Shown in pieces: positions 3,820 through 37,225 of a stretch of DNA of 64,000 bases. The notes beneath the pieces were generated by a model. The model was given only the letters and a program-made list of their open reading frames with translations. It made no database searches and was not told where the DNA came from. The DNA lies in assembly GCA_963662945.1 (NCBI GenBank), contig OY759974.1, positions 480,001 through 544,000 on the forward strand. Reading direction: 5' to 3'. Every line of letters begins with the position of its first letter. Within the stretch, counting starts at the first letter, position 1. Position numbers and translations under genes: made by a program. Source of the stretch: Arcobacteraceae bacterium (GTDB lineage Bacteria; Campylobacterota; Campylobacteria; Campylobacterales; Arcobacteraceae).

Positions 3820-4270
3820 TTATATCTTCTATATATTTTGAATATTCTTTAGATAATTGTACGTGGTTCTCTTCTAATCGTTGTTTAATAAATACTATAT
3901 TTGGTCTACTTTTGCTCCAAAAAAATGCTCCATAATATTGCTTATTTACCATAAGCCTTCTATAGTTATTTGTAAAAAAGAGTTTACCTAATTTTTTACA
4001 CTCATTACTTACTAAGCCTTTATTATCAAAAATAAAATTTGCTTCTTTACAATCATCTGTAAGAGTAAAAAATTGAGAATATATCTCTTTTTCTTGTACT
4101 GAAATTTCAGGAATATATAATATTACTTTTTCTTTAAGAGAAGATGTTGCGATTTTTGAAATTATCTTTGCTTCGAATTCTATCTCCTTATCATATGTAT
4201 TAACTAAAAAAACATGTTGTTCACTAAAAGAAAAAGAAATAACTGTTAGTAATAAAATTAGTATTTTCAT
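3812..4270 (-). CDS. Small exported protein of unknown function, positioned like YfiR between a TBDR and a DGC
   Basis: Signal peptide MKILILLLTVISFSFS; ATG overlaps the TBDR stop (TAATG) and the end overlaps the DGC start. Confidence 0.7.
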   Translation of the reverse strand: MKILILLLTVISFSFSEQHVFLVNTYDKEIEFEAKIISKIATSSLKEKVILYIPEISVQEKEIYSQFFTLTDDCKEANFIFDNKGLVSNECKKLGKLFFTNNYRRLMVNKQYYGAFFWSKSRPNIVFIKQRLEENHVQLSKEYSKYIEDIND

Positions 4271-6198
4271 TAAAACACCCACTTCATACTAAGAGTTACT
4301 TCTCTTTGATAATCTTCTAAAGCAAAAGGAGTTCCCGTAAATAATCCCTCTTTATAAAGTGATTTTGTAGATTTATCAAGAAGATTTTCCCCTTTAAGAC
4401 TTATTGATTGATGTTTTGAAAGATGATAGGTAAATCCTAGATTAAGGTTATAACTATCTTTTACATTAACTGTAGTAAATCTATATGCATTTTTATATAT
4501 TAATGAAGTGAAATAATCAAGTTTATCATATTCACCTGTAAACTTAATATAACCACCTTTATTTGAATTATTTAAAGTTTCACTGAGTTTTGTTGTAAAA
4601 TAATTTAACTCTAATTTATGATTTAATGAAAGCTCATAGGTATAATCAAAAATCCAATTTTTTGTTTTAATTGTATGATCATTAATATTTGTAAAGCCAA
4701 CTGGAGTATAATAAATAAAATTTTCAATCTTAACATCATTATACAAAATACTTAATCGAGATTTTTCATCTGCATATACACCTTCAATAGTGTAATATTT
4801 ATATTCTTGATTTTTAAGATTAAGTCTATTTGGATTTGTAATATCTGAATAATCAATATTATAAAATGATGGTGCTAAAGATGTCTTAGTAACAAAGCTT
4901 TTTAATCCAAAATGTTCTAAAGGGCTATAAATAGCTCCTATTCTATAATGTTCTGTATTAAAATCTTCTAACCCACCATTTCTCTTATATTTATCTACTT
5001 TGGCATTTCCTATTACTAACAAATCATCATGAAGTTTATAATCATCTTGGATAAATAAAGAACTAATAGTTTCTGTATCAAATCCATTAAAAGCTCCAAT
5101 TTCAGTAGTAGTATTAAGAAAATTGACTGTCGTATTTTGTTTTGTTTTATATTTTTTATTTTGAATAGAAGTTCCAATAAGAAAGTTATTACCTCTAATT
5201 GAAAAACTTTTTGATAATAATCCACTATATTTTTTAAATTGAGTATTTTGATAATATTCTTTTGGAATTGTCGTACCTAAACTAGCCATATTCAATGCAG
5301 GTATTATCTCTAACCCAGCACTATTTCGTTCTTCATATTGTAGTTCATTAAAATCATAAGATAAATTTAATTTTAATGATTTATCATCTAAAAAATAGCT
5401 TGTTATATCAAAAAAATAATTTTTTGATTTTATCTTACCATCATCAGGAACTACATCTAAAGCAAATCCTGTATAATTATCTTTTTCTAAATCAGTATAT
5501 CCAAAATTAACACTTGAACTTTCTTTTTGCCCATTAAAATAAAAATAATTCCTACTAGAATTATTATGTAATTGTTGTGTTTTATAATTTTGTTTTTCAT
5601 GTACCTTGCTATTATTAAAATAAGCAAGATATGACCAACCATTGCTTAAAACATCTGCATGACTTATACTTTTAGAATTTGTCCCATGAGAAGCAATAGT
5701 TCCAACTATTTGTGACCCATTCTCTTTTAAAGGGTTTTTTGTATACACTCGTATAAAAAATATCCCTGCATCACTTCCTAATGCAAAAGAACTATTTCCT
5801 CTATATACTTCTATATAATCTACAAAATCTAAAGGAAGATTTATCCATGAGAAAGAGGGAGATTGCATATAGATTGAACTAACTTCATGATCATTGATAA
5901 ACAATCGAAAAAATCCACTTACATCTGTTTTACTTCCAGAGAGAGAAAGATTTGAAACACCTAATTTATTAGTATTAAAATTATTTATTGGAAATTCTTT
6001 TAAAATATCAGAAAGTGTAGTATATTGCATACGTTTTAATTCTTCCTGAGAATAAATAGTCACATTTCCCAATTTTTCATCGACAGTTTTAAGGGATTTT
6101 TTAGTACTTGATTCATACTCTTGAAGTAAAGTATCTATATTTTGAGCATACATAAAATTTATACATATAAAAAAAATAAATAAGATATACTTATACAT
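4270..6198 (-). CDS. TonB-dependent outer-membrane receptor
   Basis: Signal peptide; plug motifs (TIYSQEELKRM..TLSDILK, VDYIEVYRGNSS); GENLLDK; C-terminal ...SMKWVF. Confidence 0.88.
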   Translation of the reverse strand: MYKYILFIFFICINFMYAQNIDTLLQEYESSTKKSLKTVDEKLGNVTIYSQEELKRMQYTTLSDILKEFPINNFNTNKLGVSNLSLSGSKTDVSGFFRLFINDHEVSSIYMQSPSFSWINLPLDFVDYIEVYRGNSSFALGSDAGIFFIRVYTKNPLKENGSQIVGTIASHGTNSKSISHADVLSNGWSYLAYFNNSKVHEKQNYKTQQLHNNSSRNYFYFNGQKESSSVNFGYTDLEKDNYTGFALDVVPDDGKIKSKNYFFDITSYFLDDKSLKLNLSYDFNELQYEERNSAGLEIIPALNMASLGTTIPKEYYQNTQFKKYSGLLSKSFSIRGNNFLIGTSIQNKKYKTKQNTTVNFLNTTTEIGAFNGFDTETISSLFIQDDYKLHDDLLVIGNAKVDKYKRNGGLEDFNTEHYRIGAIYSPLEHFGLKSFVTKTSLAPSFYNIDYSDITNPNRLNLKNQEYKYYTIEGVYADEKSRLSILYNDVKIENFIYYTPVGFTNINDHTIKTKNWIFDYTYELSLNHKLELNYFTTKLSETLNNSNKGGYIKFTGEYDKLDYFTSLIYKNAYRFTTVNVKDSYNLNLGFTYHLSKHQSISLKGENLLDKSTKSLYKEGLFTGTPFALEDYQREVTLSMKWVF

Positions 6199-6251
6199 AA
6201 ATTACTCCACTAAATTTTGCTTATTCTAGTGAAATAATCATTAAAAGATGG

Positions 6252-6626
6252 TTATTGATTTTGATTTTTTAAAAGTATTCTTTTGAGCCAAAGTGGTGCA
6301 TTTCCTTGCATCATTTTTTGTAATGATTGTATCACATCTTCTATTCTTTCAGCTTCATGAGATGACTTCATTGGATAGATACCACACTTTTGTACCATAT
6401 TGGCAGCTTTTGGTCCTATTTGAGATACATAAACGATGTCGCTATCTTCTAAACAATTGATTTTATATTCTAATTTATCCACCTCATCATCAAACTTTAG
6501 TGAAGAATCAACTTCATTAATAAGTTCATAATCATCTTCAGAAACTTCATAAATATAAAACATCTCACACCAACCAAAATGTTGGTTTACATGAACATTA
6601 TCTTTTGATGCAAATGCTATTTTCAT
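6252..6626 (-). CDS. nifX: FeMo-cofactor carrier NifX
   Basis: MKIAFAS..VNQHFGW..., DKLEYKI, IGPKAA, PLWLKR closely follow NifX. Confidence 0.85.
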   Translation of the reverse strand: MKIAFASKDNVHVNQHFGWCEMFYIYEVSEDDYELINEVDSSLKFDDEVDKLEYKINCLEDSDIVYVSQIGPKAANMVQKCGIYPMKSSHEAERIEDVIQSLQKMMQGNAPLWLKRILLKNQNQ

Positions 6627-6641
6627 AAATTTGTCCTAGTG

Positions 6642-7613
6642 TTAGATAATATATATCTGTATATTCTCATCAATGATTTGAGAAAGTGTATTTTTAATCA
6701 TATCATAAGTACTTGTAGCACCCAAGCTACACCCAGCACAGGCACCTTGATATGCAAGTCTTATTTGAATCTCTGGTTCATTAATATAATCTAAAATCAT
6801 CATATCTCCACCATCTTTTACTAAAATTGGTCGAATATAACGGTCAAGTGCATCTGCTATAAGTTCATATTGCTCTTCATATGATTTTGCTCTAAATACT
6901 TGATTAAGTTCACATGTTTTATTTGGTAATTTATCAACACCACCCATTTGAGCTACTGCCATTGGATGACCAGATAGTGCTGCATTTAACATGGCATTAA
7001 AACCTTCTCTTACTCTATCTTCATTTGTTCTATCTTTTAAAAGAAGAAGCCCTAATCTAAAATTTGCACCTTGATGATTTTTTTTCACTGCAATTCTAAA
7101 ATAATCTATTGCTTTTTCTTCATCCTCTTCTACACCAATTTTTGATTGATACATAAGTGCCAAATTATATGTTGCAGAGTCATTTTCATAAACTGCACCT
7201 TTTTCAAACCACTCTCGAGCTTTGTCAAAGTCTTTTTCTACACCCTCACCTTTTAAGTACATCAAACCAATATTTGCCATTGCTTGGTCATTTTTGAGTT
7301 CTGCTTCTTTTTCCCAAATACTTAATGCTGTTGCAAAATCTTTTGCTCTATATGCTTTTAATGCTTCTCTATGTTCCATAAATCTAATTCCTTCTTTTGG
7401 ATTTGGGATCTCTTTCCCTAACTCTAATTGTTTTTTTATATGCTTTTCTAAATACTCAGTAGCTATCTCTATCGCTTCGTAATAATCTTCACTAGAACCT
7501 TTTATATCAAAGTCAGTATAAACTGCCAAATAAGCATCACCAACCTCATGTTCCCCTGGATAAACTTCAACTGGATAATCCAAACTCATATAGTATTCTA
7601 AATTTTTTTCCAT
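6642..7613 (-). CDS. Fusion of HicB-like domain, Sel1 repeats and NifU C-terminal (Nfu) CxxC domain
   Basis: N-term YPVEV..G.AY...D..G..EAIEIA.E.L...LELGKEIPNP; Sel1 repeats AMANIGLMYLKGEGVEKDFDKAREWF, ATYNLALMY..GVEEDEEKAIDYF, ANFRLGLLL; C-term IRPILVKDGGD..YQGACAGCS. Confidence 0.8.
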   Translation of the reverse strand: MEKNLEYYMSLDYPVEVYPGEHEVGDAYLAVYTDFDIKGSSEDYYEAIEIATEYLEKHIKKQLELGKEIPNPKEGIRFMEHREALKAYRAKDFATALSIWEKEAELKNDQAMANIGLMYLKGEGVEKDFDKAREWFEKGAVYENDSATYNLALMYQSKIGVEEDEEKAIDYFRIAVKKNHQGANFRLGLLLLKDRTNEDRVREGFNAMLNAALSGHPMAVAQMGGVDKLPNKTCELNQVFRAKSYEEQYELIADALDRYIRPILVKDGGDMMILDYINEPEIQIRLAYQGACAGCSLGATSTYDMIKNTLSQIIDENIQIYII

Positions 7614-7913
7614 CTAGCAACACTCCAACTCAACTTGATCTAGAACTTCTGTACCTTTTTGGAAATCAAACTCTTCAAATAAATCATGGATATAAAACAC
7701 ATTTGCACATACTAAATACAAAGTATCTTTTTCTTCCCCTTTACTCCAAACTTCTCGATAATTTTCTGGTATTTTATCCATAAAATTAACCCATAAACCA
7801 TTTTTCGATTCTGGTTTTGATTCAAAAAGTTCATTCATAGCATCAAGAACCAATGCAGCATTTTCATAACAATCTATATTGTTAAATGTAACATATCTAT
7901 CTTTTACTTCCAT
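7614..7913 (-). CDS. cowN: CowN-like protein protecting nitrogenase from CO
   Basis: 99 aa; N-term DRYVTF.NIDC and C-term LDQVELECC typical of CowN; nif context. Confidence 0.75.
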   Translation of the reverse strand: MEVKDRYVTFNNIDCYENAALVLDAMNELFESKPESKNGLWVNFMDKIPENYREVWSKGEEKDTLYLVCANVFYIHDLFEEFDFQKGTEVLDQVELECC

Positions 7914-7916
7914 AAT

Positions 7917-8309
7917 TTACTTATTATCCTCACAACCACAACTACAAGTTTCACCCTCACCAGGATTGAGTAGGTTTTTATAATTGTCATTTGTAAGTTT
8001 TACTAGTTTGTTATTATTAAAATTATTACATATATCTTCTATTGAATAAGTATTATAATCAGCAGTGTAAACATCCATACCATTTTTATCAAATGATTTA
8101 TAAACACCTTCACCCATATAATAAAATATAGTAGAATCTACACCTTTTGTTTTTAAGAAATCACCACTTTTAGGTCCTTCCCCTTGAACATCATTTGTTA
8201 TGATTTCATACTTACCTGTATGGGTATCTAGTAGTGCAAAATATGGAACTCTTCCATAAAGTTTTGAAATAGTTGTTGATTCTTTTGTATCGATTGGAAT
8301 TGCTAACAT
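7917..8309 (-). CDS. NifB/NifX-family (dinitrogenase FeMo-co binding) protein
   Basis: MLAIP....ISKLYGRVPYFALLD, MGEGVY..F...GMDVY; C-terminal CSCGC. Confidence 0.75.
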   Translation of the reverse strand: MLAIPIDTKESTTISKLYGRVPYFALLDTHTGKYEIITNDVQGEGPKSGDFLKTKGVDSTIFYYMGEGVYKSFDKNGMDVYTADYNTYSIEDICNNFNNNKLVKLTNDNYKNLLNPGEGETCSCGCEDNK

Positions 8310-8345
8310 TATAAATCCTTTTCTACATTTATATGCTAGTATATT

Positions 8346-8360
8346 TGCATAATCTATTCC
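8346..8360 (-). promoter_or_regulatory. Putative sigma54 (-24/-12) promoter of the NifX-like/cowN/Nfu/nifX operon
   Basis: Minus strand GGAATAGATTATGCA = GG-N10-GC, 36 nt before the ATG at 8309; 13/15 identical to the element before nifE. Confidence 0.7.
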
Positions 8361-9226
8361 CTAAATATTGTTTTATCTCGTCCTGTCAATTTTGCTTTGT
8401 ATAATAACTTATCTGCCTCTTTTAATAAATCATCAATTGTTAGAAAAGTATCATTGTATTGTGCAATTCCACTACTAATAGTAAAATTTACTTTTTTTGA
8501 TTCTACATCTAAAGTATCTGCTTTTATATTATTTCTTATAACTTCAAGAAGTTCAAAAAGTATTGCTTTACTTTCAAAATTACAAACAATTGCAAACTCT
8601 TCACCACCAAGTCGTCCAAATATACTCTGTGATGGAAGCATACTTTGAATCATCTTAGCTATTCTTTTTATCACAATATCCCCAATATGATGTCCATAAG
8701 TATCATTAATACTTTTAAAATTATCAATATCAATCATCACAGCAAATAGATCTTTTTGTTGAAATTCAAATCTTTCTTGTGCTAATTCAAAAAACTTTCT
8801 ACGATTTAAAATACCTGTCATAGTATCATGAGAAGATATATATTCAAGATTTTTTATCATACTTTGTAACTCTAATTGAGTTTTTACTCTAGCCATTAAT
8901 TCTTTAGGTTTAAATGGTTTAGAAACATAATCACTCCCACCAACTTCATAAGCTTTTTCAATACTATCTTCATCTGTTTTTGCAGTAATAAATATTATAG
9001 GAATTGCTTGAGTTTGAGGATTTTGTTTTAATTGTCTACACACTTCATATCCATCTATATTGGGCATCATAATATCAAGAAGTATTAGATTTGGTACCTC
9101 TTCATTTGCTATTTCTATAGCATTTTTTCCATCTAAAGCAACTATAACATCATACTTGTCCCCAAGTAATTCTACTAATATTTTTATATTTATTTTTGTA
9201 TCATCAATAACCAATATGGTTTCCAC
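8354..9226 (-). CDS. Response-regulator diguanylate cyclase (REC-GGDEF)
   Basis: ILVIDD, ILLDIMMP, SKPF; DIDNFKSINDTYGHHIGD, RLGGEEF; GTG start with AAGGA RBS. Confidence 0.93.
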   Translation of the reverse strand: METILVIDDTKINIKILVELLGDKYDVIVALDGKNAIEIANEEVPNLILLDIMMPNIDGYEVCRQLKQNPQTQAIPIIFITAKTDEDSIEKAYEVGGSDYVSKPFKPKELMARVKTQLELQSMIKNLEYISSHDTMTGILNRRKFFELAQERFEFQQKDLFAVMIDIDNFKSINDTYGHHIGDIVIKRIAKMIQSMLPSQSIFGRLGGEEFAIVCNFESKAILFELLEVIRNNIKADTLDVESKKVNFTISSGIAQYNDTFLTIDDLLKEADKLLYKAKLTGRDKTIFRE

Positions 9227-9235
9227 AATTTTCCT

Positions 9236-12151
9236 TTATATGAGTGCAAGAAGTTCTAAAGCCTTTTGAAAATCAAATTTTTCTGTACATTGCTTTATGT
9301 GATTAAAATTTATTTGTTCCTTTTTTGAAAGCTTATATTGATTTAGTTCCTCTAGTACCTTTTCAATATTTTTAGGTCTTTTAGAATGTAAAGTCTCTTC
9401 AAGTTTTTTACACAACTCTTTTTTCTTTTCACTTGTTAAGATCTCTTTTGGGTTCATAGATGACTCGTTTTGAAAACTCAACTGTTCTAATTCCTCAATT
9501 ACTTTATTCGTTTCTTTATAAAGTTTATCAATTAAACTTGAATCATTTTTATTTTCAACTTCTTGTATAATTTTATTAAGATTAATAGCCCCTATATTAG
9601 CGCTTAATCCCTTCATAGTATGTAAAACTCTTTTTTTCTCTTCATCTTCTAAATTATCTATAGTAAAACTTTTATAATCTTGATAAAAAGTATTTAATAC
9701 TTTCAGATATAACTCTTTATTATTGGCTAAATGTTTTAATCCATTTATTGTATCTATATATTTAAAATTCGGTAATTTTATTAGCTCTTGATTTTCTACA
9801 ATTTTATCTAGAGAAAGATATTTTCTTAATGTTGTATATAGTTTTTTTACTTCAATTGGTTTATTTAAGTGTTCTTGCATCCCTGCAGCTTTTGTTGCTT
9901 CGATATCCTCTTTCATCGCATTAGCAGTTAATGCAATAATAGGTATATTTTTATTAATCTTTTTTATATGTTTAGTTGCTTCATATCCATCCATTATTGG
10001 CATCTGAATATCCATAAGGATCAATTGATATTTATTTTTATTTTTTTGAAATATCTCTAAAGCTTCTTTCCCATTTGATGCTATATCTATTGTTATTTCG
10101 CTTTGCTCTAACAGCCCTACAACTATCTCTTGATTCATTTTATTATCTTCAACTAATAATATATGCTTTCCACTAAAAGGAATAGTTTGCACTTCTCTTT
10201 TTATAACTGTTTTATTTAAATCTTCAATATTAAAATCTTTAATAAATATATCACTTAAAATATCATTTAATAAAGAGGGATTCACAGGCTTTTGCAAAAA
10301 TAATTTTATACCAACTTCTCTTGCTAATTGGACTATTGATTCTTGTCTAAAGCTACTAACCATTATTACAGTTGGAGGCTTTTTGCCCTTATACTGTTCA
10401 TTGATAATTCTTGTTGTTTCTATACCATCAAGTTCAGGCATATTCCAATCCATAAGTATAAGATCATAATCGATATTACCTTTTTTCAGATGTTCTATCG
10501 CTTCATTTCCACTTTTTACACCATATACTTTGATATTAAACATACCCAAAATATTTTCAAGAACTTCATGCCAAGTTTCATTGTCATCTACAACTAATAC
10601 TTTTTTATCAGGAAAAATATTATATTTTTTTGTTTCATTTTTTTCTTCTAATTCAATTTCAAATATGAAAGAACTTCCAACTCCATATTCACTCTCAATC
10701 CATATTTTACCATTCATCAACTCTACAAGCTGTTTTGATATGGTTAGACCTAAACCCGTACCTCCATATTTTCTTGTAGTACTTCCATCTGCTTGTGAAA
10801 AAGACTCAAATAGTTTTGATTGTTGCTCTTGGGTTAAACCAATTCCTGTATCTTTTACCTCAAATTTATATCTGTTTCGAGATGCTTTTGAAATATATAA
10901 ACCAACTTCACCCTCTTGTGTAAATTTTACTGCATTAGCTAAAAGATTTGTAAGAATTTGTGAAAGTCGTAAATTGTCCCCATAAAACTTTTTACCTATA
11001 CTTGTATCATAACTCACAATAAGTTCAAGATTTTTTTCGTGAAGTTTAAACTCTATGATATTAACTACATTTTCTATAGTTTTAAAAAGATCAAAATCAA
11101 CCTTATCAATAGAGAGTTTTCCAGCCTCAATTTTAGAAAAATCTAATATATCATTAATAATAGAGAGAAGTGTTTTTGCACTATGATCTATCTTTTGTAT
11201 ATAATTTTTTTGTCTCTCATTAAGGTCTGTTTGCAGTGCCAGATGAGACATACCAATAATACCATTCATAGGTGTTCGTATCTCATGAGACATATTTGCT
11301 AAAAATTCTGATTTTGATTTTGTAGACTCTTCTGCTTTAACTTTAGCGATTTCAAGCTCTTTGGTTCTATTTTCAACCTTCTTTTCTAAACTTTCATTAA
11401 GATCTTTTAATTGAGAATATGAATGATTGAGTTTTTTAGTCATATTTGAAAATGTTTTTGCTAAAATTCCAACTTCACCTTTTGTAGTTATATTATCCAA
11501 TTCCTCTTTAATATTATTTTTTCCCTCTGAGACCCTTTGTGCAATATCTGTTAAAAGTATAATTGGTCGAATAAGTCTTTGAGCAAATATATAACCTAAA
11601 AATGAGAAAAATAAAGCTATAGAAAGTGCTGTAATAAGTGATGTTTTAATATTAGTGTATATTTTCTTTTCAATATCTTGCTGCGCTTTATCTACTTCAA
11701 TATTCAATTTTGTTAAAGGATAAACAATACTCAATGTACCCCATTTTTGAAATAATTGAATAGGTGTAGAGATAACAATATCGTTATTCAGCTCTTTAAT
11801 AGTAACTTTATCGACGGACATTTTGTAAATACGCCCTTCAAATATTTGAACTGTATTATCAACATTATTTAACACTATACCATCTATCTCATCTCTACTT
11901 ATTAAGTTTTTAAATATTGTGTTTATATGAGATAAATTTAATGAAGCAATATCATTTTCAATCTCTTTTTTATAATACTCTATTGTCTGATTTGCATTAA
12001 ATTTTAAATTTGATTTCATTAAAGAGATTCTTTTATCAAGTTCATTATTCATTATCTCAATTTGCTCATTAATATTTTTAACAGTAAATATTACTGTGAT
12101 TGAAATTACTATTATTAATATATTTGAAATTAATTTACTCTTTAAACTCAC
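9236..12151 (-). CDS. Hybrid sensor histidine kinase (TM-HAMP-HisKA-HATPase-REC-REC-HPt)
   Basis: [37 protein letters not shown]; two REC domains (MDWNMP, MDIQMP); HPt [13 protein letters not shown]. Confidence 0.95.
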
Positions 12152-13020
12152 TCTAATACCTTATTAACAAGAGATAATCCATTTTTATTATACTTTAAAT
12201 TTAACTTGTCTGCTATTTTCTTATTAAAAATCACATTTGTACCCATTGGCATTTGAATAGGTGTAAATTCTTTCTTTTGCTCATATTGATTTATCATTGA
12301 AGCTATTTGTCGACCTATTGTAGGATTATCTGCTGATATTATTAATGTTGCATCATATTTTAAAAATAATTCATGATATGCAAAGAGAGGCTTTTTTGCC
12401 ATTGTAACTTTTTCAAAAAGTGATAAAACTTTTTTTTCATCTTTTAATAATAATGGATCAGCAATTAAAATTAAACCATCACTCTCTTGAATTTTATCAA
12501 TATCTATCTCATTATCTTCAGTCATCTCTTCACCTATTATTTTTATACCTATTAATAAGGCATTTTGTTTGAAGTTTTCATAGAGTTCTTTTGTATAAGA
12601 GCTATAAACAATAGTTAACTTTTTAGTATCTGGAAAAAGTGATTTAATAATAGTTAAATTCATACCCGCATGAAGTTCATTGGAAACACCAAATCTATTT
12701 TTTATCAAATCTAATCTTTTATAGTTTACAATCGAACTAAAAAATAATGTTTTTTCAGGGATATACATATCTACATATTTGTATGCTTTTGTTCCTATTG
12801 CATAAACAATATCAGGATACTCATCATATAAATACTCTTTAATTTGTTTATTTGTCATTTTAGAAATATCCAAAGATTTATAATCACCTATAAAATTTTC
12901 TTTAAATGATCTCTCTACACTTGAATATTTTTCGATATTATTATTTGAGTTCAATACTAAAATCTTCTCAGCAAATAAAAAGGAGATGGTAAAAAGGGAT
13001 ATTGTAATTAAAAACTTCAT
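12148..13020 (-). CDS. ABC-type substrate-binding-like periplasmic protein (COG2984-like)
   Basis: Signal peptide; [43 protein letters not shown]. Confidence 0.75.
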
Positions 13021-13784
13021 TTTACACCCCCTAGAATTTTATTATAGTCATTTTTTGTTAGTATAACGATATCATCAATACCTAACAAATTTAATATCTT
13101 TTTACCATATAAATCTGAATTCATAGACTTAAATAAATTAATACATTCCTTACTATATTGATTTTTTAATTTTGAAGCTATAAGCATTCTAAAATTAGGT
13201 TTTGATTCTTTATAAATAATCATTTGCTTTGCTAAAAAGCCATTTACATTTTTTAATAACTCAAAGCTATCTTTTGATACTAAAGCAAACTTGCTTAATC
13301 CAAATCCAACAGACATTAAAGCATCAATCTCTTTTGGTACATTTAAAATATTTAAATTATTATTTTCTATAAGTGTATCGATAAGTTTTCTTGAATAATC
13401 TTGAGAGTACGTTGTAGTGATGGTTCCATCAAATTGTAAACCCTTTTTACCTACAATTATTTTAGTATCTGTCATACTCTCTCTTTTTAAAGCAACGAGC
13501 TTTGCTTCTAAGTCATATTTTTTAGCAATTTGTTTATAGTGCCAGCTTGAGAGAATAACAATAATATCTTGATTTTTTAAAAACTGCTCAAAGATCTCTT
13601 TTTTGTTAAAAGGTTGAAAATCATAGTCTCCATATTGACTTAAATATTGCTCAAAAGTAACTTTTAATGACTTAAAATCATTTACATTTGCTTCTGTTGT
13701 ATAAAAATATATTTTTTTAGGCTCAGCAAAGAGAGTATTTGACAATAAGAAGATAAGGAATATTAAATATTTTATTTTAACCAT
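13017..13784 (-). CDS. Periplasmic binding protein (PhnD/phosphonate-binding-like)
   Basis: Signal peptide; overall pattern of PhnD-like proteins (FEQYLS.., KEIDALMSVGFG, GKKILNLLGID). Confidence 0.55.
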   Translation of the reverse strand: MVKIKYLIFLIFLLSNTLFAEPKKIYFYTTEANVNDFKSLKVTFEQYLSQYGDYDFQPFNKKEIFEQFLKNQDIIVILSSWHYKQIAKKYDLEAKLVALKRESMTDTKIIVGKKGLQFDGTITTTYSQDYSRKLIDTLIENNNLNILNVPKEIDALMSVGFGLSKFALVSKDSFELLKNVNGFLAKQMIIYKESKPNFRMLIASKLKNQYSKECINLFKSMNSDLYGKKILNLLGIDDIVILTKNDYNKILGGVK

Positions 13785-14998
13785 GGTTGGGTATATTTAT
13801 CCTCTCCACCTAGTGAACTATTCATTATTTCCCAATTTGCAATAAGTCCAGGGCAATTTTTAACATTTTTAGGTGCATCGATAGCTACTACATAGAGATT
13901 AATTGTTTCAACTTCAGGGTCATTAAATAATTCTTGTAATTGTGTAACATCACAAATTTTTATTTCAGGTTTTGAAGAAGCCTCTTTTTTATAAATCACT
14001 TCTGGCAAATAACAAATTGAATCAGGTCCCATTATGTATGGTTTTTCTATCTCATTACTTTGCGTATCTATAATAATATTAGCATAAATATTTTCATTTG
14101 CAGTATATGCTTTAAAAGAACTATTTTTGTAAAGATTTAATCCTTCTATTGTTAATATCCCGATATCTTCACCATGAATTGGTTTGGAATCTATTTTAGT
14201 TAATGTCCCATAAAAAATATCTTTTGTAAATCTTTTCTCTTTACTGTCATTATTCATATAACTAATGATTTTTGTTAAGCGAGTTTCAGTTGTCTTCTGT
14301 GTTTCTATAATAATTCCAATATTATAAGAATCTGTTAATGTATCTTTTACTACATACTCATTTTTAAGATTTTCTTTCTTCGTTGGATATAATGAAAAAC
14401 CACCACTATTTTTAAATGCACTTGAAGTAAACATCTCTCCAAAACACTCTTGAACATGATCTAAACTTTCAAGATTATAAGAGGAAAAATAAGGAACTTC
14501 ATTTCCACTTGCAATAAAATTTGGATAAAATTTACAGTTATAACCAGCAAAAAGTGTTAAAGGTAAAGTTGGTGTTGCTCTACCTGAGGGATCTGCATCT
14601 ATTACTTTTAAGGTTTTTCCTTTATTTTTTGCTAATTTACAAGCAATAATAGGTAAAACAGAGTTTACTGTTCCAACCTCCATAGGGAGAATATATTTAA
14701 ACTCATCAAAATCTTTCTCATTGCAGCTACACCAGTGTTCTATTATTTCAATTACATTTAATATTGACTTGTTAAGTTCTGCTGGATGAAATGAAGCACT
14801 AGGTAAACCCATTCCTGAAGTTGGTACTATCCAATCGGCATTTTCAATACTATCAAAAGATACAACTTCAACAAAGTCATCTACAGTGAAATTTGCATCG
14901 ATACAACTTTGCCCAAGTGCTAAAGGTCCCCCTCCTCCAGAGGCTAAAAAACAAGCTCCATTGAGTATATATTCAAGTTCTTTTTTACCTACTGTCAT
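13772..14998 (-). CDS. DUF917-family protein
   Basis: GACFLASGGGGP, GMGLPS, PMEVGTVNS, VIDADPSGRATPTL, ANENI, PDSIC are DUF917 hallmarks; no signal peptide. Confidence 0.82.
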   Translation of the reverse strand: MTVGKKELEYILNGACFLASGGGGPLALGQSCIDANFTVDDFVEVVSFDSIENADWIVPTSGMGLPSASFHPAELNKSILNVIEIIEHWCSCNEKDFDEFKYILPMEVGTVNSVLPIIACKLAKNKGKTLKVIDADPSGRATPTLPLTLFAGYNCKFYPNFIASGNEVPYFSSYNLESLDHVQECFGEMFTSSAFKNSGGFSLYPTKKENLKNEYVVKDTLTDSYNIGIIIETQKTTETRLTKIISYMNNDSKEKRFTKDIFYGTLTKIDSKPIHGEDIGILTIEGLNLYKNSSFKAYTANENIYANIIIDTQSNEIEKPYIMGPDSICYLPEVIYKKEASSKPEIKICDVTQLQELFNDPEVETINLYVVAIDAPKNVKNCPGLIANWEIMNSSLGGEDKYTQPWLK

Positions 14999-15014
14999 CT
15001 TTTCTCCTTATTTT

Positions 15015-16955
15015 TTAGAATGTATATTTAAGCTCAAACATAAAGTTTCTGCCATCTTTTTCATAATCATCAACAGTAAATCCAACTCGAGAGGGGTCAT
15101 ATGCTTCTTTATCAAAAAGATTATTTATGGTTGCTTTTAATTCAAGATTTTTATAGAAATTTTTTAATTGCATTGAAACATTTACCAAAGCATAACCTGC
15201 TACATCAGCTCTACTATCTCCTGATATTCTTTTCATTTTACCTCTTAGTTCAATATGATTATTAATATTTAAAAACTTATTAATTTTATAGTTGAAAAAT
15301 ATATTCCCTTTATGTTTTGCAATATCTGCCAAATCTGTATTGTTGATTTTATCTTTAGCTTTTTGATAGGTATAATTTGCCATAAGATATGATCCTCTAG
15401 TTAAATCATACTTAGTCTCAATTTCAATACCCTCAGAAGAAGTTTCACCTTGATTTATATAAATAGTTCCACTTTGAATAATTAAGTTATCAAAATCATT
15501 ATTAAAATAGGTTATTTTAGAGTTTAGATTAGCTATTGAACTATTTTCATAAGACAATTCATAAGTTTTAACCTTTTCAGGTGTCAGATTGGTGTTTCCT
15601 TGTATTACTGCTGAAGCATTATATGATTCTGCAAAAGTTGGCGTTCTAAACCCTTCTCCATAGATCGCTTTTAATATATTATTGTTATTAATTTGCCAAC
15701 TTAATCCACCTCTTGGTGCAGTATTGGAACCAAAATCACTATAATTATCATGTCTTATTCCAACTGTTAATCTTATATTATTACTTAAGTCATAAATATT
15801 ATTAGTATAGAGTGCCCACATATTTCTATTTACATTAGGAGCAAAAGTATTTGAAGTGTTAGATAAATTGACAGAGTTTACAATTGTTTCAACATCATAC
15901 TGTTTATGTTTTTCATATGTCGCACCTAAGATAGAAGTCAATTTTGTATTTACTTTATATGTTAAGAGTGATTCTATACCATTTTTTTCATTTGTAAGAG
16001 AGTTTCTCATTTTTAAATCAGCAGGCACAGTTAAAAGGTGCCAATAGTTATTAAACTTGTATTTATCAAAATATAATCTTGTAGATAGATTTAATTTTTC
16101 TGTTATTTGTTTATTATTGCCTGTTTCAATGAATAGGTAATCTAATTTTGGATCATTCTCTACTGCAATCTCTCCTAAAGGTCCAAAATGCTCCCCATCA
16201 TCTCTATTTAAATACATAGACTTCAAATAAAAATCTTTATAATCAATTTTTATATTAGCTGTTAATTGCTTTAAATATGGATTATTAGTAGCACTTTTAT
16301 TTGCTCTATCTTGTTTAATATAAACCTTATTTCCATCAGTATCTTTTACATTTATATTTGCAACTAAAGATAACTCATCAAATTGTTTACCATATAATAA
16401 ATTTATCTCTTTTGTATTATATGAACCTATTTTACTATTTACAATTACTCCATTGATATCTGCGGCATCTTTTGTAATTATATTTATCAACGCTGTAAAT
16501 GCATTTGCTCCATATAAAGCAGATGCTGGTCCTTTGACTATTTCTACTCTTTTTATATTATCTAATGAGATTTTGTCTAAGATTGGAGCAGCACCTCCAT
16601 TTAATAATAAAGCATCTATAGAATGACCATCAATCATAAATAATACTTGTTTTGAAGTAAAGTCTTTAATTCCCCTTACTTCGATTTCATTGAAAAATAT
16701 ATTCCCTTGTGTCACACTAATACCTGGAACTGTATTTAATAATTCTGATATATTTTTTACACCTGACACCTCTATCATCTCTTCATCAATAACATTCACA
16801 GAAGCAGATGTTTTTTTAATATTTTCTTTTACCCTTGAAGCAGAAACAACAAATGTTTCCTCTTCTAACCATTGCATCTCATCTTGCAAAGTTGTTTCAA
16901 AAGGATTAGCAAATAGTAGAGTAGGTAAAAATATATATAACAGTTTTTTTATCAT
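15015..16955 (-). CDS. TonB-dependent outer-membrane receptor
   Basis: Signal peptide; VVSASR, ELLNTVPGI, IKRVEIVKGPASALYGANAF..INIITK, GFRTPTF, LTPEK, NNLFDK, C-term ELKYTF. Confidence 0.93.
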   Translation of the reverse strand: MIKKLLYIFLPTLLFANPFETTLQDEMQWLEEETFVVSASRVKENIKKTSASVNVIDEEMIEVSGVKNISELLNTVPGISVTQGNIFFNEIEVRGIKDFTSKQVLFMIDGHSIDALLLNGGAAPILDKISLDNIKRVEIVKGPASALYGANAFTALINIITKDAADINGVIVNSKIGSYNTKEINLLYGKQFDELSLVANINVKDTDGNKVYIKQDRANKSATNNPYLKQLTANIKIDYKDFYLKSMYLNRDDGEHFGPLGEIAVENDPKLDYLFIETGNNKQITEKLNLSTRLYFDKYKFNNYWHLLTVPADLKMRNSLTNEKNGIESLLTYKVNTKLTSILGATYEKHKQYDVETIVNSVNLSNTSNTFAPNVNRNMWALYTNNIYDLSNNIRLTVGIRHDNYSDFGSNTAPRGGLSWQINNNNILKAIYGEGFRTPTFAESYNASAVIQGNTNLTPEKVKTYELSYENSSIANLNSKITYFNNDFDNLIIQSGTIYINQGETSSEGIEIETKYDLTRGSYLMANYTYQKAKDKINNTDLADIAKHKGNIFFNYKINKFLNINNHIELRGKMKRISGDSRADVAGYALVNVSMQLKNFYKNLELKATINNLFDKEAYDPSRVGFTVDDYEKDGRNFMFELKYTF

Positions 16956-17150
16956 AAAATTTCCAATAATAATCTTTTTCGATTTAGTATGGTATCACAA
17001 ACAAGTTTTAAAATACTAATCAAACTTTAATCCAATAACTTTAAACACTCTCTAGTTTCATTAAAATTACATTTTAAACTATACTTTTTTAGCAAATTAA
17101 ACCATAACAAATTAGCCTTATAAAGCTCATATATCCTTTAAATATACAAC

Positions 17151-17165
17151 GGAATATCTTATGCA
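17151..17165 (+). promoter_or_regulatory. Putative sigma54 (-24/-12) promoter of nifE
   Basis: GGAATATCTTATGCA = GG-N10-GC, 34 nt upstream of the nifE start. Confidence 0.72.
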
Positions 17166-17199
17166 TACTTATTATTAATACTACTAGCGGAGTACAAAG

Positions 17200-18552
17200 A
17201 TGATGGTAAACAAAAAACAAATCAGAGAACTTCTGAACGAATCAGCCTGTTCCCACAATGAGAAAAAAAAATCAAGCTGTGACAAACCAAAGCCAGGTGC
17301 TACAAGTGGTGGTTGTGCTTTTGAAGGTGCACAAATAGCCCTATTTCCTTATGCGGATGCAGCTCATTTAGTACATGCCCCAGCAACCTGTCAAGGAGCA
17401 AGTTGGGAAACAAGAGCCACGCCAACTAGTTGGGAAGGTGAAAATAATACTCCACTTGGATACTGTACCGATGTAACAACAAATGATGTTATCTTTGGTG
17501 GAGATCAAAAACTTGAAGATAGTATCAGTTATATTTGTGAAGTAAAAAAACCAAAAGCAGTATTTGTCTATGAAACTTGTGTAACAGCTATGATTGGCGA
17601 TGATATGGATAATGTTGCCAAAAGAATGGAAGAGAAATATAATATTCCAATTGTAGTAGTTCATGCACCAGGATTTGTAGGGAGTAAAAACTTAGGAAGC
17701 CGTTTAGGTGGAGAAGCTGTTTTACATCAACTAATAGGAACAAGAGAGCCAGAAGAGATACATCCATTTGGAATTAACTTAATCGGTGAATACAATGTAA
17801 CAGGCGATATGTGGCAATACACCCCTATCTTAGAAAAAATAGGGATAAAAGTTGTTTCAACTCTAGCTGGTGATGGAAGAATTGAAAATATCCAAATGGC
17901 ACATAGAGCAAAACTTAATGTAATCGTATGTGCAAAATCACTTGTAACATTAGTACGAAAAATGGAAGAGAAATACGGTATTCCACATATCTCTGTTTCT
18001 TTTTATGGTAAACGTGATACTACAAATGCCATCATGTCTATAGTCAATGCTTTTGGAGATGAAACATTGACAAAAAAAGCACTTGAAATTATAAAAGAGG
18101 AAGAGGAAGCTTTAGAACAAAGACTTCTTCCTTATAGAAAAATATTAGCTGGAAAAAAAGCTATTCTTAATACTGGTGGAAATAAATCTTGGTCAATAGC
18201 ATCAGCACTACAAGATATAGGAATCGAAGTGGTTGCTACAAGTATTAGAAAATCGACTTTAGAAGATATAGAGATTGCAAAAAAATATGTTCCAATCTTA
18301 ATGAAAGTTCCAGCAAATGAACAAGCTGCACTTATAGATGAACACAAAGTTGATATACTTCTAGCAGGTGGAAGAAGTTTATATACAGCTATCAAGAAAA
18401 AAGTGGCTTTCGTGGATGTAAATCAAGAGAAAAAAGTAAGCTATGGTGCGTATGGTGGCCTAGAAAACTTAGCTATAGATGTGTGTGCTGCCGTATTAAA
18501 TCCAGTATTTAAAACAGTAGGAGAACCAGCTCCATGGGATGAGAGCTGTTAA
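17200..18552 (+). CDS. nifE: Nitrogenase FeMo-cofactor scaffold subunit NifE
   Basis: KPGATSGGCAFEGAQIAL, AAHLVHAP..C, VYETCVTAMIGDD, PGFVGSKNLGSRLGGEA, NTGGNKSWS, FVDVNQE, PAPW. Confidence 0.95.
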   Translation: MMVNKKQIRELLNESACSHNEKKKSSCDKPKPGATSGGCAFEGAQIALFPYADAAHLVHAPATCQGASWETRATPTSWEGENNTPLGYCTDVTTNDVIFGGDQKLEDSISYICEVKKPKAVFVYETCVTAMIGDDMDNVAKRMEEKYNIPIVVVHAPGFVGSKNLGSRLGGEAVLHQLIGTREPEEIHPFGINLIGEYNVTGDMWQYTPILEKIGIKVVSTLAGDGRIENIQMAHRAKLNVIVCAKSLVTLVRKMEEKYGIPHISVSFYGKRDTTNAIMSIVNAFGDETLTKKALEIIKEEEEALEQRLLPYRKILAGKKAILNTGGNKSWSIASALQDIGIEVVATSIRKSTLEDIEIAKKYVPILMKVPANEQAALIDEHKVDILLAGGRSLYTAIKKKVAFVDVNQEKKVSYGAYGGLENLAIDVCAAVLNPVFKTVGEPAPWDESC

Positions 18553-18553
18553 G

Positions 18554-18578
18554 AAAAAGACAATAGTTTGTCTTTTTT
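18554..18578 (+). terminator. Intrinsic terminator after nifE
   Basis: AAAAAGACAA-tagt-TTGTCTTTTTT. Confidence 0.6.
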
Positions 18579-18584
18579 CTCAAA

Positions 18585-18655
18585 GAGAGTGCAAGCACAA
18601 GAAGCTCGGAACTGGAACGGTCATAACGAAGTGAAGCCGTGGAAGATAGCGAATA
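18585..18655. repeat. GC-richer REP-like intergenic element with mini-hairpins
   Basis: GTGC-AA-GCAC and ACGGT...GCCGT stems around ACGAAGT; visibly GC-richer than the flanks; single copy in this window. Confidence 0.35.
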
Positions 18656-18684
18656 ATTTATTCTTCCTATGATATACTCATTGC

Positions 18685-20100
18685 ATGAAAATATTATTAA
18701 CAGGTGCAAACGGATATATTGGAAGAAGAGTTAAAAATATACTCAAAACCAATCCAAATATCAAACTAAAACTTTTTGTTAGAAATAAACAATCACTATC
18801 GCAAGAGATACTACAAACTTGTGAAGTAATAGAGGGTGATACCTTTAATCTTGATGCTTTAAAAGAAGCACTTAAAGATGTAGATGTAGCATACTATTTC
18901 ATACATTCATTAAATAATGAAAACTATAAAGAACTAGATAAAATATCCGCACAAAACTTTATCCAAACAGCAGAACAATGTGGTGTAAAAAGAGTTATTT
19001 ATCTAGGTGGGCTTGGTGTAAAAGATGAAAATACAAGTGAACATCTTTTAAGTAGACTTGAAACTGGAGAGGTTTTAAGTTCCTCATCAAAAGTGCAAAC
19101 TATTTGGATAAGAGCTGGAGTGATTATAGGTTCTGGAAGTGCTAGTTTTGAGATTATTAGAAATTTAGTTGAGAAACTTCCTGTGATGATAACCCCAAAA
19201 TGGGTAGATACTTATGCACAGCCAATAGCTGTAGATGATGTTATAAACTATCTCATCGCAGCTATAACACTTGAATATGACAAAAATGTAATAGTAGATA
19301 TAGGTACTACAAAAATGAAATACAAAGACCTTATGCTACAAACAGCGGTTGCCTTAGGTTTAAAGAGGTATTTGATTCCTGTCCCTTTTATGAGTATCAA
19401 TATCTCTTCTTATTGGTTAAATCTTTTCACACCTGTCCCATTTACTGTTGCTAAAGCATTAATTGAGGGATTGAAATCAGAAGTTACAATGCAAAATGAC
19501 AATGCAAAAAAATACTTTCCACAAATAACACCTCTTAATTATATTCAAGCTGTTAAAAAAGCTGTTGCAGAGATAGAACAAAATCAAGTGGTAAGTAGAT
19601 GGAGTGATGCCGATGGAAGTAGTTGGGATAAGACACATAGAAAACAGATACATGATGCTATTTTTGTAGATAGAGTTGAGGCTGATATTAGTTCTTATGA
19701 TAAAGCAAAAGTATTTCATGCTGTTAAATCAATAGGTGGAAAAAATGGCTGGTTTGATTATAGCTATTTATGGAGAATACGGGGTTTTATTGATAAACTT
19801 ATTGGTGGAGTTGGATTGAGTCGTGGACGAAGAGATACTTGCGATATCAGACTTGGTGAATGTTTAGATTTTTGGAGAGTAGAAGATATAAAAGAGAATG
19901 AAAGGCTCCTACTCTTTGCACAGATGAAACTACCAGGGGAAGCGTGGCTTGAATTTAAAATTCAAGATAATAAACTTATCCAATCTGCATACTTCTATCC
20001 TCGAGGTATTTGGGGAAGAGTATATTGGTATAGTATGATTCCTATGCACTATTTTATTTTTAAAAATATGATAAAAGGTATTTTAAAAAATAGTGAATAA
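18685..20100 (+). CDS. Atypical SDR oxidoreductase with C-terminal DUF2867 (YbjT-like)
   Basis: TGANGYIG, YYFIHSL, IYLGGLG, RAGVIIGSGSASFE; C-term IGGKNGWF, LDFWRVE, MKLPGEAWLEF. Confidence 0.88.
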   Translation: MKILLTGANGYIGRRVKNILKTNPNIKLKLFVRNKQSLSQEILQTCEVIEGDTFNLDALKEALKDVDVAYYFIHSLNNENYKELDKISAQNFIQTAEQCGVKRVIYLGGLGVKDENTSEHLLSRLETGEVLSSSSKVQTIWIRAGVIIGSGSASFEIIRNLVEKLPVMITPKWVDTYAQPIAVDDVINYLIAAITLEYDKNVIVDIGTTKMKYKDLMLQTAVALGLKRYLIPVPFMSINISSYWLNLFTPVPFTVAKALIEGLKSEVTMQNDNAKKYFPQITPLNYIQAVKKAVAEIEQNQVVSRWSDADGSSWDKTHRKQIHDAIFVDRVEADISSYDKAKVFHAVKSIGGKNGWFDYSYLWRIRGFIDKLIGGVGLSRGRRDTCDIRLGECLDFWRVEDIKENERLLLFAQMKLPGEAWLEFKIQDNKLIQSAYFYPRGIWGRVYWYSMIPMHYFIFKNMIKGILKNSE

Positions 20101-20151
20101 GCTTATTATGATAAAATGTTTTACTAATAAATCTTCCATAAATGAGGTCAA

Positions 20152-31675: not shown

Positions 31676-31797
31676 ACGCTATTGTATCATAATTAGTACC
31701 AAAAATACATAAGAAATGATTTTTTTTATATTGCTTTTAAATATTTTAGTCAAAATATGAATGTTAATTCACAAAGTAAAAATTATGAGGAGTGAGT

Positions 31798-32310: not shown

Positions 32311-32327
32311 AACTCTAAAGAGGTAAG

Positions 32328-32966: not shown

Positions 32967-32998
32967 ATAAAATAATTTTAATAAAAAAAGGAAGAAAT

Positions 32999-33784: not shown

Positions 33785-33785
33785 T

Positions 33786-35540: not shown

Positions 35541-35554
35541 GAAAGCACAAATAT

Positions 35555-36529: not shown

Positions 36530-36532
36530 CTT

Positions 36533-37222: not shown

Positions 37223-37225
37223 TAA

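Follow-up and report, generated by a model that had tools for sequence, protein, structure and literature searches.

An envelope-spanning sensory cassette of Campylobacterota that combines a TonB-dependent receptor, a DUF917 protein and two orphan binding proteins with sensors of interchangeable output

We analyzed a stretch of 64,000 nucleotides (nt) from the genome of an Arcobacteraceae bacterium (GenBank assembly GCA_963662945.1, contig OY759974.1, positions 480,001 to 544,000), hereafter called the window, which has a G+C content of about 27%. Six genes between positions 8354 and 16955 of the window encode a TonB-dependent receptor (TBDR), a DUF917 protein, two periplasmic binding proteins (SBP1 and SBP2), a hybrid histidine kinase and a response-regulator diguanylate cyclase. 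We show that this six-gene unit, hereafter the cassette, belongs to a type of sensory cassette that spans the cell envelope and is conserved in Campylobacterota; the input domain of its sensor is conserved and the output is interchangeable. The gene order TBDR-DUF917-SBP1-SBP2 was found in 13 of the 36 comparison loci that we surveyed, and every one of the 14 cassettes, the window included, is adjoined by at least one sensor with the shared input domain. The features of the locus are as follows.

15015..16955, minus strand: TBDR, TonB-dependent outer-membrane receptor of 646 aa (Plug and barrel domains in Pfam)
13772..14998, minus strand: DUF917 (S-Me-THD-like) protein, cytoplasmic, 408 aa, type A (PF06032 and PF20906)
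13017..13784, minus strand: SBP1, orphan periplasmic binding protein of 255 aa with a PhnD/AioX/ArrX/XAC2383 fold; 13-nt overlap with the DUF917 gene
12148..13020, minus strand: SBP2, orphan periplasmic binding protein of 290 aa, COG2984-type (PF04392); 4-nt overlap with SBP1
9236..12151, minus strand: hybrid histidine kinase of 971 aa (Pfam); 4-nt overlap with SBP2
11552..12151, minus strand: kinase input module, residues 1–200, comprising an un-named periplasmic sensor domain and two transmembrane (TM) helices (profile)
8354..9226, minus strand: REC-GGEEF response-regulator diguanylate cyclase of 290 aa (REC and GGDEF in Pfam)
16956..17199, no strand assigned: divergent intergenic region of 244 nt between the TBDR gene and a nifE-like gene (position only)

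The open reading frame (ORF) list gives the six minus-strand genes at coordinates identical to those in an earlier note on this DNA, and the spacings from the TBDR through DUF917, SBP1, SBP2 and the kinase to the REC-GGEEF gene (16, −13, −4, −4 and 9 nt) agree with its description of co-oriented genes that are tightly packed or overlap. Pfam likewise agrees with the domains named there (TBDR, DUF917, COG2984-like protein, HAMP-HK-REC-REC-HPt kinase and REC-GGEEF protein), and the absence of an ABC permease or ATPase that it reported extends over the whole region between 2647 and 22365 (Pfam and NCBIfam). The arrangement is far from chance because the gene order was found again in 13 other loci, and the 4-nt overlap indicates that SBP2 and the sensor are translationally coupled. 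From its position, the divergent intergenic region (16956..17199) is the likely promoter region of the cassette; a consensus scan for promoter-like sites gave no excess over shuffled sequences (97 versus 111.5). A scan for terminator-like sites from 17600 down to 2000 returned one site on the plus strand and none on the minus strand.

The survey of other genomes was seeded with an alignment of 26 of the 53 DUF917 relatives detected. It gave 99 pattern matches, 38 of which were confirmed, in 36 loci (L001 and similar labels denote comparison loci). The loci were sorted by tblastn with the window proteins and by Pfam scans of 85 and 80 neighboring ORFs at 16 loci. All 13 cassette loci contain DUF917-SBP1-SBP2, with the TBDR included in 11, and they come from Sulfuricurvum, Sulfurimonas, Sulfurovum, Arcobacteraceae and unclassified Campylobacterales. 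Complete cassettes are present in L001–L010 and L012; in L011, the contig begins within the cassette, and L035 is a 3.7-kb fragment. The TBDR orthologs at the same position in 11 loci are 38–45% identical to that of the window (86% in L004), and the SBP2 orthologs in 12 loci are 42–61% identical (94% in L004). Whether the binding proteins partner permeases elsewhere had been raised in the earlier note; transporter families are absent beside the cassette in the window and in all eight Campylobacterota cassette loci that were scanned with Pfam.

The sensor gene on the 3′ side of SBP2 always begins at the SBP2 stop codon. In the window, it encodes a TM helix, a periplasmic domain of about 140 aa, a second TM helix and a HAMP-HisKA-HATPase_c-REC-REC-Hpt cytoplasmic part, for which the best NCBIfam similarities (BarA, TorS and LuxQ) are all below cut-off. 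The H-box SHEIRTP, the DxxMP-type Asp sites of the REC domains and the HxxKG motif of the Hpt domain were recognized by eye. The output that follows SBP2 differs among the cassettes: a hybrid kinase in the window, L004 and L010, a kinase without REC in L001, L002, L006 and L009, a PAS-kinase in L007, and a HAMP-GGDEF protein in L008. Across these differing outputs, residues 1–260 of the sensors are 33–48% identical (E values of 1e-44 to 1e-84), and of their cytoplasmic elements HAMP alone is shared by all cassette sensors. When a profile of the first 200 residues was searched against all ORFs of at least 100 aa in the 36 loci and the window, the input domain was found after SBP2 in the window and 11 loci. 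In L002, L003, L005 and L009 (truncated), a HAMP-GGDEF gene immediately upstream of the TBDR gene carries a paralog, and in L005 this upstream GGDEF protein is the only sensor. The profile did not find the input domain in the remaining 23 loci.

The additional HAMP-GGDEF gene lies directly upstream of the TBDR in the Sulfuricurvum-type cassettes (L002 6612–7979, L003, L005 6636–7982 and L009 61–870), and its input domain is about 25% identical to that of the sensor after SBP2. Because of this paralogous input domain, one set of binding proteins may feed two sensors in these cassettes.

The input domain is not restricted to the cassette. The profile detected 263 representatives in a library of 1.84 billion proteins, 157 of them at E ≤1e-10; these counts were taken from the profile, as a homolog search with kinase residues 1–200 gave four matches. 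Among 57 representatives scanned for their output (the proteins of at least 350 aa among the first 64 of the 263), 45 have a kinase, five a chemoreceptor (MCP), three a SpoIIE phosphatase and two a GGDEF domain, and two have no output domain. No Pfam model covers the domain, and its ESM Atlas neighbors, sCache/CHASE8-like domains (0.90–0.93), serve as a lead only. Since it lacks a Pfam model, is present in at least 263 protein clusters and is joined to kinases, chemoreceptors, phosphatases and cyclases, the input domain merits its own family definition.

Both binding proteins carry signal peptides, as judged by eye from the translations. SBP1 itself has no Pfam or NCBIfam match. Its orthologs match PF12974 weakly (E about 1e-7 in Pfam), and its ESM Atlas neighbors are PF12974 clusters (score 0.97; 26 of the 30 matches in the family set of the best match). 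The AlphaFold2 model of SBP1, built from 24 sequences (pLDDT 82.7), has ArrX as its top Foldseek match (E 1.5e-11) together with PA3383, PtxB, GpxB, AioX, BstB and XAC2383 at TM scores of 0.60–0.67; E values for ArrX, PA3383, PtxB, AioX and XAC2383 range from 1e-9 to 1e-11, the XAC2383 structures 5ub3 and 5ub7 match at 0.66, and PhnD is also matched. Because of the ortholog matches, the ESM Atlas neighbors and the fold of the model, the 255-aa ORF is PhnD-like, as the earlier note had proposed, despite having no family match of its own. A search of PDB sequences with SBP1 alone returned nothing, and the SBP1 profile returned only ArrX at a non-significant E value of 1.7. Homologs of SBP1 form 118 clusters in the protein collection; the names shown are "hypothetical protein" except for one label beginning "ABC-type amin". 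SBP2 matches PF04392 (E 5e-13, Pfam) and, among PDB sequences, 3lkv (E 2e-5) and 3lft (E 0.014), which are uncharacterized proteins according to their depositions. A search of the plasmid collection gave no SBP2 match.

The TBDR has a Plug domain (E 3e-24) and a TonB_dep_Rec barrel of the 22-strand type (E 3e-45) in Pfam, and its matches to the heme, siderophore and B12 subfamilies of NCBIfam are all sub-threshold. A signal peptide was read by eye from the translation, as was the sequence ETFVVSAS, which resembles a TonB box. The Plug begins at residue 46, right after the signal peptide and the TonB box, and neither Pfam nor the translation shows a FecA-type N-terminal signaling extension ahead of it.

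The DUF917 protein scores 85.6 bits against PF06032 and 53.4 bits against PF20906 (gathering cut-offs of 27). It has no signal peptide, nor do the 12 other DUF917 N-termini inspected; the long N-termini of some of the DUF917 ORF calls reflect upstream alternative starts. Its AlphaFold2 model (pLDDT 86.5, pTM 0.90) matches only 2o3i, the only solved member of the family, in Foldseek (TM score 0.74–0.82, E 1e-18 to 6e-19); the next match has an E value of 0.03, and the fold search gave no functional relative. Twenty-three positions, including G14, A15, G21–G24, E107, D136, R140, N301, E302 and D326, are invariant in all 35 relatives compared, whatever their gene context. This invariance across contexts argues for a retained active or binding site in DUF917.

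DUF917 is described as experimentally uncharacterized in a preprint, which considers it possibly hydantoinase-like, suggests ring opening, and reports hydantoin racemase and cyclodipeptide-oxidase clusters as contexts (bioRxiv 10.1101/2023.09.25.559410). Our literature search found no paper giving an activity for DUF917, a DUF917 gene in a signaling operon or a description of the six-gene cassette; the term thiohydantoin desulfurase, mentioned in the earlier note, stems from the Pfam name. A DUF917 search of the plasmid collection matched only four distant Enterococcus and Listeria records. The canonical example, on an Enterococcus raffinosus plasmid, consists of a cytosine-type permease, DUF917, a hydantoinase/oxoprolinase and a PucR regulator, which bears out the view that DUF917 usually occurs in catabolic clusters. 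Such partners are present in the comparison loci L037 and L028. According to Pfam, hydantoinase/oxoprolinase, NCS1 permease and hydantoin racemase are absent from the window and from all eight scanned cassette loci.

Three side observations concern the DUF917 family. In L028, a gammaproteobacterial metagenome-assembled genome (MAG), three P47-family (PF06597) genes lie upstream of DUF917 and a hydantoin-type racemase (4405–9368). In L025 (3330–11242) and L031 (5458–11110), from Odoribacter and an Acidobacteriaceae MAG, the gene immediately before DUF917 encodes an AAA_16 ATPase, and genes of contractile injection systems lie alongside (a tape measure protein and the eCIS core in L025, a sheath protein in L031). 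L032 was placed by the tree only and groups with L025, and this neighborhood represents an unexpected third context for DUF917. A cyclodipeptide synthase (CDPS) gene (PF16715) lies 2.3 kb downstream of the L006 cassette (17706–18425); since it occurs at L006 alone, and neither at another locus nor in the window, a cyclodipeptide link was dropped.

Two types of DUF917 occupy the same slot in the cassette. Of the 53 relatives, 18 show at least 51% identity, 17 show 28–33%, and 18 are more distant. A tree of 35 DUF917 proteins, from which the split L006 and partial L035 sequences were left out, contains a type A clade (window, L001, L002, L003, L004 and L005) and a type B clade (L007–L012), each with 100% support in the Shimodaira–Hasegawa-like approximate likelihood ratio test (SH-aLRT); the two types are about 30% identical to each other. 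A tree of concatenated SBP1, SBP2 and TBDR sequences (19 rows) follows taxonomy instead, with types A and B interleaved: the Arcobacteraceae rows of both types group together (98%), as do the Sulfuricurvum rows of both types (100%). Holding type A together on the flank tree was rejected (log-likelihood difference 284, approximately unbiased (AU) test p 7e-9), as was holding the four Arcobacteraceae together on the DUF917 tree (difference 296, AU p 3e-49).

The same conflict is seen in pairwise identities. L007, from the same family as the window, is 45% identical in the TBDR, 67% in SBP1 and 57% in SBP2 and only 30% in DUF917, whereas L001, from another family, is 42%, 52% and 48% identical in these proteins and 64% in DUF917. 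Type A DUF917 is the best-conserved cassette gene between families (61–64% identity versus 38–54% for its neighbors). Since the DUF917 tree contradicts the flank tree, the slot is kept and its occupant exchanged, and the sequences indicate a separate history of the occupant, either by replacement or by sorting of an old duplicate. DUF917 is strongly kept at its position, with either of the two types able to serve. The swapping of two deeply divergent versions inside a conserved operon is a pattern usual for specificity-determining parts.

The REC-GGEEF protein has REC (E 1e-29) and GGDEF (E 3e-38) domains in Pfam and is PleD- and DgcR-like below the NCBIfam cut-off. The GGEEF motif is intact, and PSQS stands at the place of the RxxD I-site, five residues before GG(D/E)EF. 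This absence, pointed out in the earlier note, is common to all three REC-GGDEF orthologs (PSQS in the window, KKDA in L006 and SEDD in L010), and RxxD is intact in the three upstream HAMP-GGDEF proteins checked (L002, L005 and L009). The kinase gene is followed by the REC-GGDEF gene in three of the 14 cassettes, namely the window, L006 (58% identity) and L010 (55%). In the window and eight of the 13 loci (L002, L003 and L005–L010), the cassette contains a gene for a GGDEF protein or directly adjoins one, and in L001 a REC-GGDEF-EAL gene lies on the opposite strand at a distance of 3 kb; L011, L012 and L035 were left out of the resolved count of GGDEF neighbors. These genes fit a cyclic di-GMP (c-di-GMP) output of the cassette. 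The earlier proposal of a phosphorelay that activates the cyclase is supported by the recurring kinase/REC-GGDEF pair and the frequency of GGDEF neighbors, and does not extend to L004, which has no REC-GGDEF gene after the kinase.

The 3′ end of the cassette in L004, whose proteins are otherwise 86–96% identical to those of the window, has undergone a recent rearrangement. Its kinase gene is followed by a 460-aa ORF without a family and then by a STAND-type protein of at least 1338 aa with AAA_16, TPR and GAF domains (15785–21222).

The best explanation of the whole, to which we give somewhat better than an even chance, is that the cassette is a sensor fed by a TBDR and binding proteins and directed to c-di-GMP, and that DUF917 acts on the cue itself or a metabolite related to it. 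Modeled on AioX-AioS, TorT-TorS, NspS-MbaA and XAC2383-XAC2382, the mechanism would be as follows: the TonB receptor would pump a scarce external molecule into the periplasm, where one or both of the orphan binding proteins would bind it. The loaded or unloaded binding protein would then dock on the periplasmic domain of the sensor and switch it. In the window, this switch would control autophosphorylation of the hybrid kinase, and a His-Asp-His relay would phosphorylate the adjacent REC-GGEEF protein and turn on c-di-GMP synthesis. As the cyclase has no RxxD I-site, this synthesis would escape product inhibition. The least secure step concerns DUF917, which may be an active enzyme or small-molecule binder of a hydantoinase-associated, S-Me-THD-like family. 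The target of DUF917 in the cytoplasm would be the cue or a precursor or breakdown product of it, which would tie the periplasmic signal to cytoplasmic chemistry. Presentation of a ligand to the sensor by the binding proteins, as put forward in the earlier note, fits the established analogs and the finding that the orphan proteins are always adjoined by a sensor with the conserved input domain, while the docking itself is a prediction.

Several observations weigh against this explanation. L004, the closest relative, is without the REC-GGDEF gene. Neither the binding proteins nor the output type co-vary with the type of DUF917, so the idea that DUF917 and the receptor form a dialect-like synthase-receptor pair is not favored. 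The cassette encodes neither an exporter nor an inner-membrane importer, so that it is not apparent how the cue would reach or leave the cytoplasmic DUF917. In L006, a Sulfurimonas MAG, the type A DUF917 is split into two ORFs (10001–11106) by a frameshift or an assembly error. The survey was seeded with DUF917 and cannot count cassettes without it, so their frequency is not readable from it. A search with SBP1 gave 114 clusters at 42% identity or more against 35 clusters of DUF917 types A and B, and these numbers, obtained at unequal search sensitivities, hint weakly that versions of the cassette without DUF917 exist. Finally, 10 of the 36 loci are from Methylobacter; in nine of them, an SBP1-SBP2-TBDR trio (29–35% identity) is convergent to DUF917 and has no sensor with the input domain within 10 kb, and the setting in L015 looks metabolic (the tenth locus is a 6-kb contig).

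These Methylobacter loci bear on the alternative that the cassette is a nutrient-scavenging operon, in which the TBDR and the binding proteins catch a substrate, perhaps a phosphate ester or an N-heterocycle, for a permease encoded elsewhere, DUF917 catabolizes it and the sensor reports on it. In L015 (11389–17691), GDPD and GlpD genes precede SBP1, SBP2 and the TBDR on one strand, convergent to DUF917 (Pfam, this locus only). Because these two genes precede the trio, a glycerophosphodiester-type ligand is hinted at, and the glycerol-1-phosphate-binding protein 9lf9 is among the Foldseek neighbors of the SBP1 model. The canonical context of DUF917 is also catabolic, as in Enterococcus raffinosus, and singular loci of the survey place it beside a hydantoin-type racemase (L028) or a CN-hydrolase (L014). 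We nevertheless consider scavenging unlikely: neither a permease nor a hydantoinase nor another catabolic gene was found at the window or at any of the eight scanned Campylobacterota loci, and all 14 cassettes have a sensor with a dedicated input, translationally coupled to SBP2 through the 4-nt overlap.

A different role for DUF917 is suggested by loci that have neither a TBDR nor binding proteins. In six Oceanospirillales-type loci, DUF917 is directly followed by a gene for a cytoplasmic PAS-HisKA-HATPase-REC protein (two of them, L018 and L026, were scanned with Pfam and have overlapping ORF calls; tblastn shows collinearity in the remaining four). In Marinobacter, one of the seven singular loci, which also comprise those of L014, L028, L025, L031, L032 and the short contig L033, DUF917 is followed after 5 nt by a PAS-PAS-GGDEF-EAL gene. 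This coupling in seven gammaproteobacterial loci makes a sensor protein the common denominator of the DUF917 contexts, and DUF917 lies inside the operon in every cassette. DUF917 might thus be a cytoplasmic ligand-binding co-sensor that docks on the sensor, as H-NOX and NosP do on kinases, and provides a second, intracellular input. However, HAMP offers the only cytoplasmic element shared by the cassette sensors, the DUF917 type is uncorrelated with the output type and with the tree of sensor inputs, and the invariant acidic, Arg and Asn residues are common to relatives in catabolic contexts, which suggests the same chemistry. On balance, a co-sensor role is rather improbable.

The cassette of the window lies among nif genes, a context that the earlier note did not mention. 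A nifE-like gene (17200–18552, plus strand; TIGR01283, 495.5 bits versus a cut-off of 505.1) is oriented divergently to the TBDR gene and is not followed by nifN. On the minus strand, the REC-GGDEF gene is followed at 6252–8309 by a nifX-like gene, cowN, a Sel1-repeat/NifU-C fusion gene and nifX, and then by a second TBDR gene, a 156-aa ORF and a gene for a membrane GGDEF protein; the gaps from the REC-GGDEF gene onward are 44, 3, 0, 15, 53, −13 and −8 nt. The window contains no nifHDK genes. The cassette could then serve nitrogen fixation by sensing or importing a metal complex or a nitrogenase cofactor precursor and tuning c-di-GMP. The short gaps on the same strand up to the second TBDR (0 to 53 nt), the absence of a terminator-like site on the minus strand in our scan and the nifE neighbor shared by L004 speak for such a role, which we judge very unlikely all the same, as nif neighbors occur only at the window and at L004. 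No nif genes follow the kinase gene of L004, tblastn with the five nif proteins of the window found no match in the other 12 cassette loci, and the seven of them scanned with Pfam are without a nif family. The weakest alternative, an accidental one-off insertion of DUF917 into an unrelated signaling operon, which was raised because DUF917 is usually catabolic and had been set in advance as the outcome that would speak against a functional unit, found no support and can be dismissed: DUF917 lies between the TBDR and SBP1 in 11 complete and two partial cassettes, the order recurs in 13 other loci of at least four genera, start and stop codon overlaps link the genes, and type A is the best-conserved gene between families.

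Beyond the reading of the cassette as a binding-protein-fed sensor directed to c-di-GMP, a broader and tentative idea, which we hold to be improbable as it stands, is that this clade of DUF917 forms a new class of signal-processing enzymes tied to bacterial sensors. They would make or unmake a small heterocyclic cue, to be read either in the periplasm, by way of a TonB receptor, two binding proteins and a Cache-like sensor, or in the cytoplasm, by PAS kinases and PAS-GGDEF-EAL proteins. Types A and B would then be alternative chemistries or "dialects" kept by selection. If true, a physiological role would be assigned to the DUF917 family for the first time, and c-di-GMP signaling would be seen to have a TonB-gated route. 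DUF917 is linked to kinases and c-di-GMP enzymes again and again, in three gene arrangements that are unrelated to one another. The cassette also opens DUF917 to testing; the family is widespread, a structure has been solved, and the literature searched demonstrates no function for it. A full path from the outer membrane to a second messenger within one cassette would be a compact model for cues that are too scarce or too large for porins.

Other parts of the window gave further observations. The genes at 2647–6198 (minus strand) encode a divergent TBDR, in which only the Plug was recognized, the 156-aa ORF without a family and the membrane GGDEF protein, and they overlap by 13 and 8 nt; the TBDR/GGDEF pair was considered as a paralogous cassette and rejected, as the GGDEF protein has no similarity to the input domain. 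At 40952–44094 (minus strand), the gene for a Peripla_BP_6 protein overlaps that for a PAS-HisKA-HATPase kinase, so that orphan binding proteins beside sensors recur in this genome. Genes for hydrogenase maturation (hypF, hupE/ureJ, hypB, hypD and hypE; 20152–22365 and 31792–38871, plus strand) are spread over about 18 kb and are interrupted by genes of sulfur metabolism, namely those for a rhodanese, an SQR-like protein, CysK, an O-acetylhomoserine sulfhydrylase and a TsuA-like transporter.

Among known systems, the closest precedent is XAC2383-XAC2382, reportedly a PhnD-fold binding protein with a membrane cyclase whose periplasmic (Cache-type) domain is said to recur with other outputs. It shares with the cassette a PhnD-fold orphan binding protein beside a membrane sensor, and outputs are swappable here as well. 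XAC2383 and SBP1 match in fold, with sequence-level kinship not detected. The cassette differs in adding a TonB receptor, a PF04392 protein and DUF917, and in having a hybrid kinase that would act on a separate REC-GGEEF protein in place of a one-protein diguanylate cyclase.

The closest precedent for a sensor with its own enzyme, as envisaged in the earlier note, is ScrABC of Vibrio parahaemolyticus, in which an enzyme, a periplasmic binding protein and a c-di-GMP-metabolizing membrane sensor are encoded in one operon. ScrA, an aminotransferase-like enzyme that makes the S-signal, is unrelated to DUF917, ScrB belongs to SBP_bac_3, and the system has neither a TonB receptor nor a kinase relay. 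In the PfeA-PfeS/PfeR and PirA-PirS/PirR systems of Pseudomonas aeruginosa, the ligand of a TonB-dependent receptor is sensed in the periplasm by the adjoining two-component kinase. These kinases sense the ligand directly and induce the receptor gene, and the systems are not known to involve binding proteins, DUF917 or a c-di-GMP output.

The cassette core works like known binding-protein-dependent sensors, since the shared input domain stands beside orphan binding proteins and SBP1 has the PhnD/AioX fold. Binding proteins that stimulate kinases or c-di-GMP enzymes are an established class, described in PMC8050422 for AioX (PF12974)-AioS, TorT-TorS, LuxP-LuxQ, NspS-MbaA and ScrB-ScrC, and the pairing of a binding protein with a sensor is therefore not itself a novelty. 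In AioX-AioS-AioR and in ArrX/ArxX, a PhnD-family binding protein without a transporter is the first element of a two-component system (PMC8050422, PMC5908839). The likeness extends to SBP1, whose top fold match is ArrX. The cue in those systems is an arsenic oxyanion and their target a transcription factor, and they are without the TonB receptor, the second binding protein, DUF917 and the c-di-GMP output that the cassette has.

The canonical DUF917 clusters share with the cassette both Pfam domains, the 2o3i fold and the invariant residues of the protein, and differ in their permease, hydantoinase/oxoprolinase and PucR regulator, all of which the cassette dispenses with. What is new in the Campylobacterota cassette is the TonB receptor dedicated to it, the additional binding protein of the PF04392 family and the obligatory cytoplasmic DUF917.

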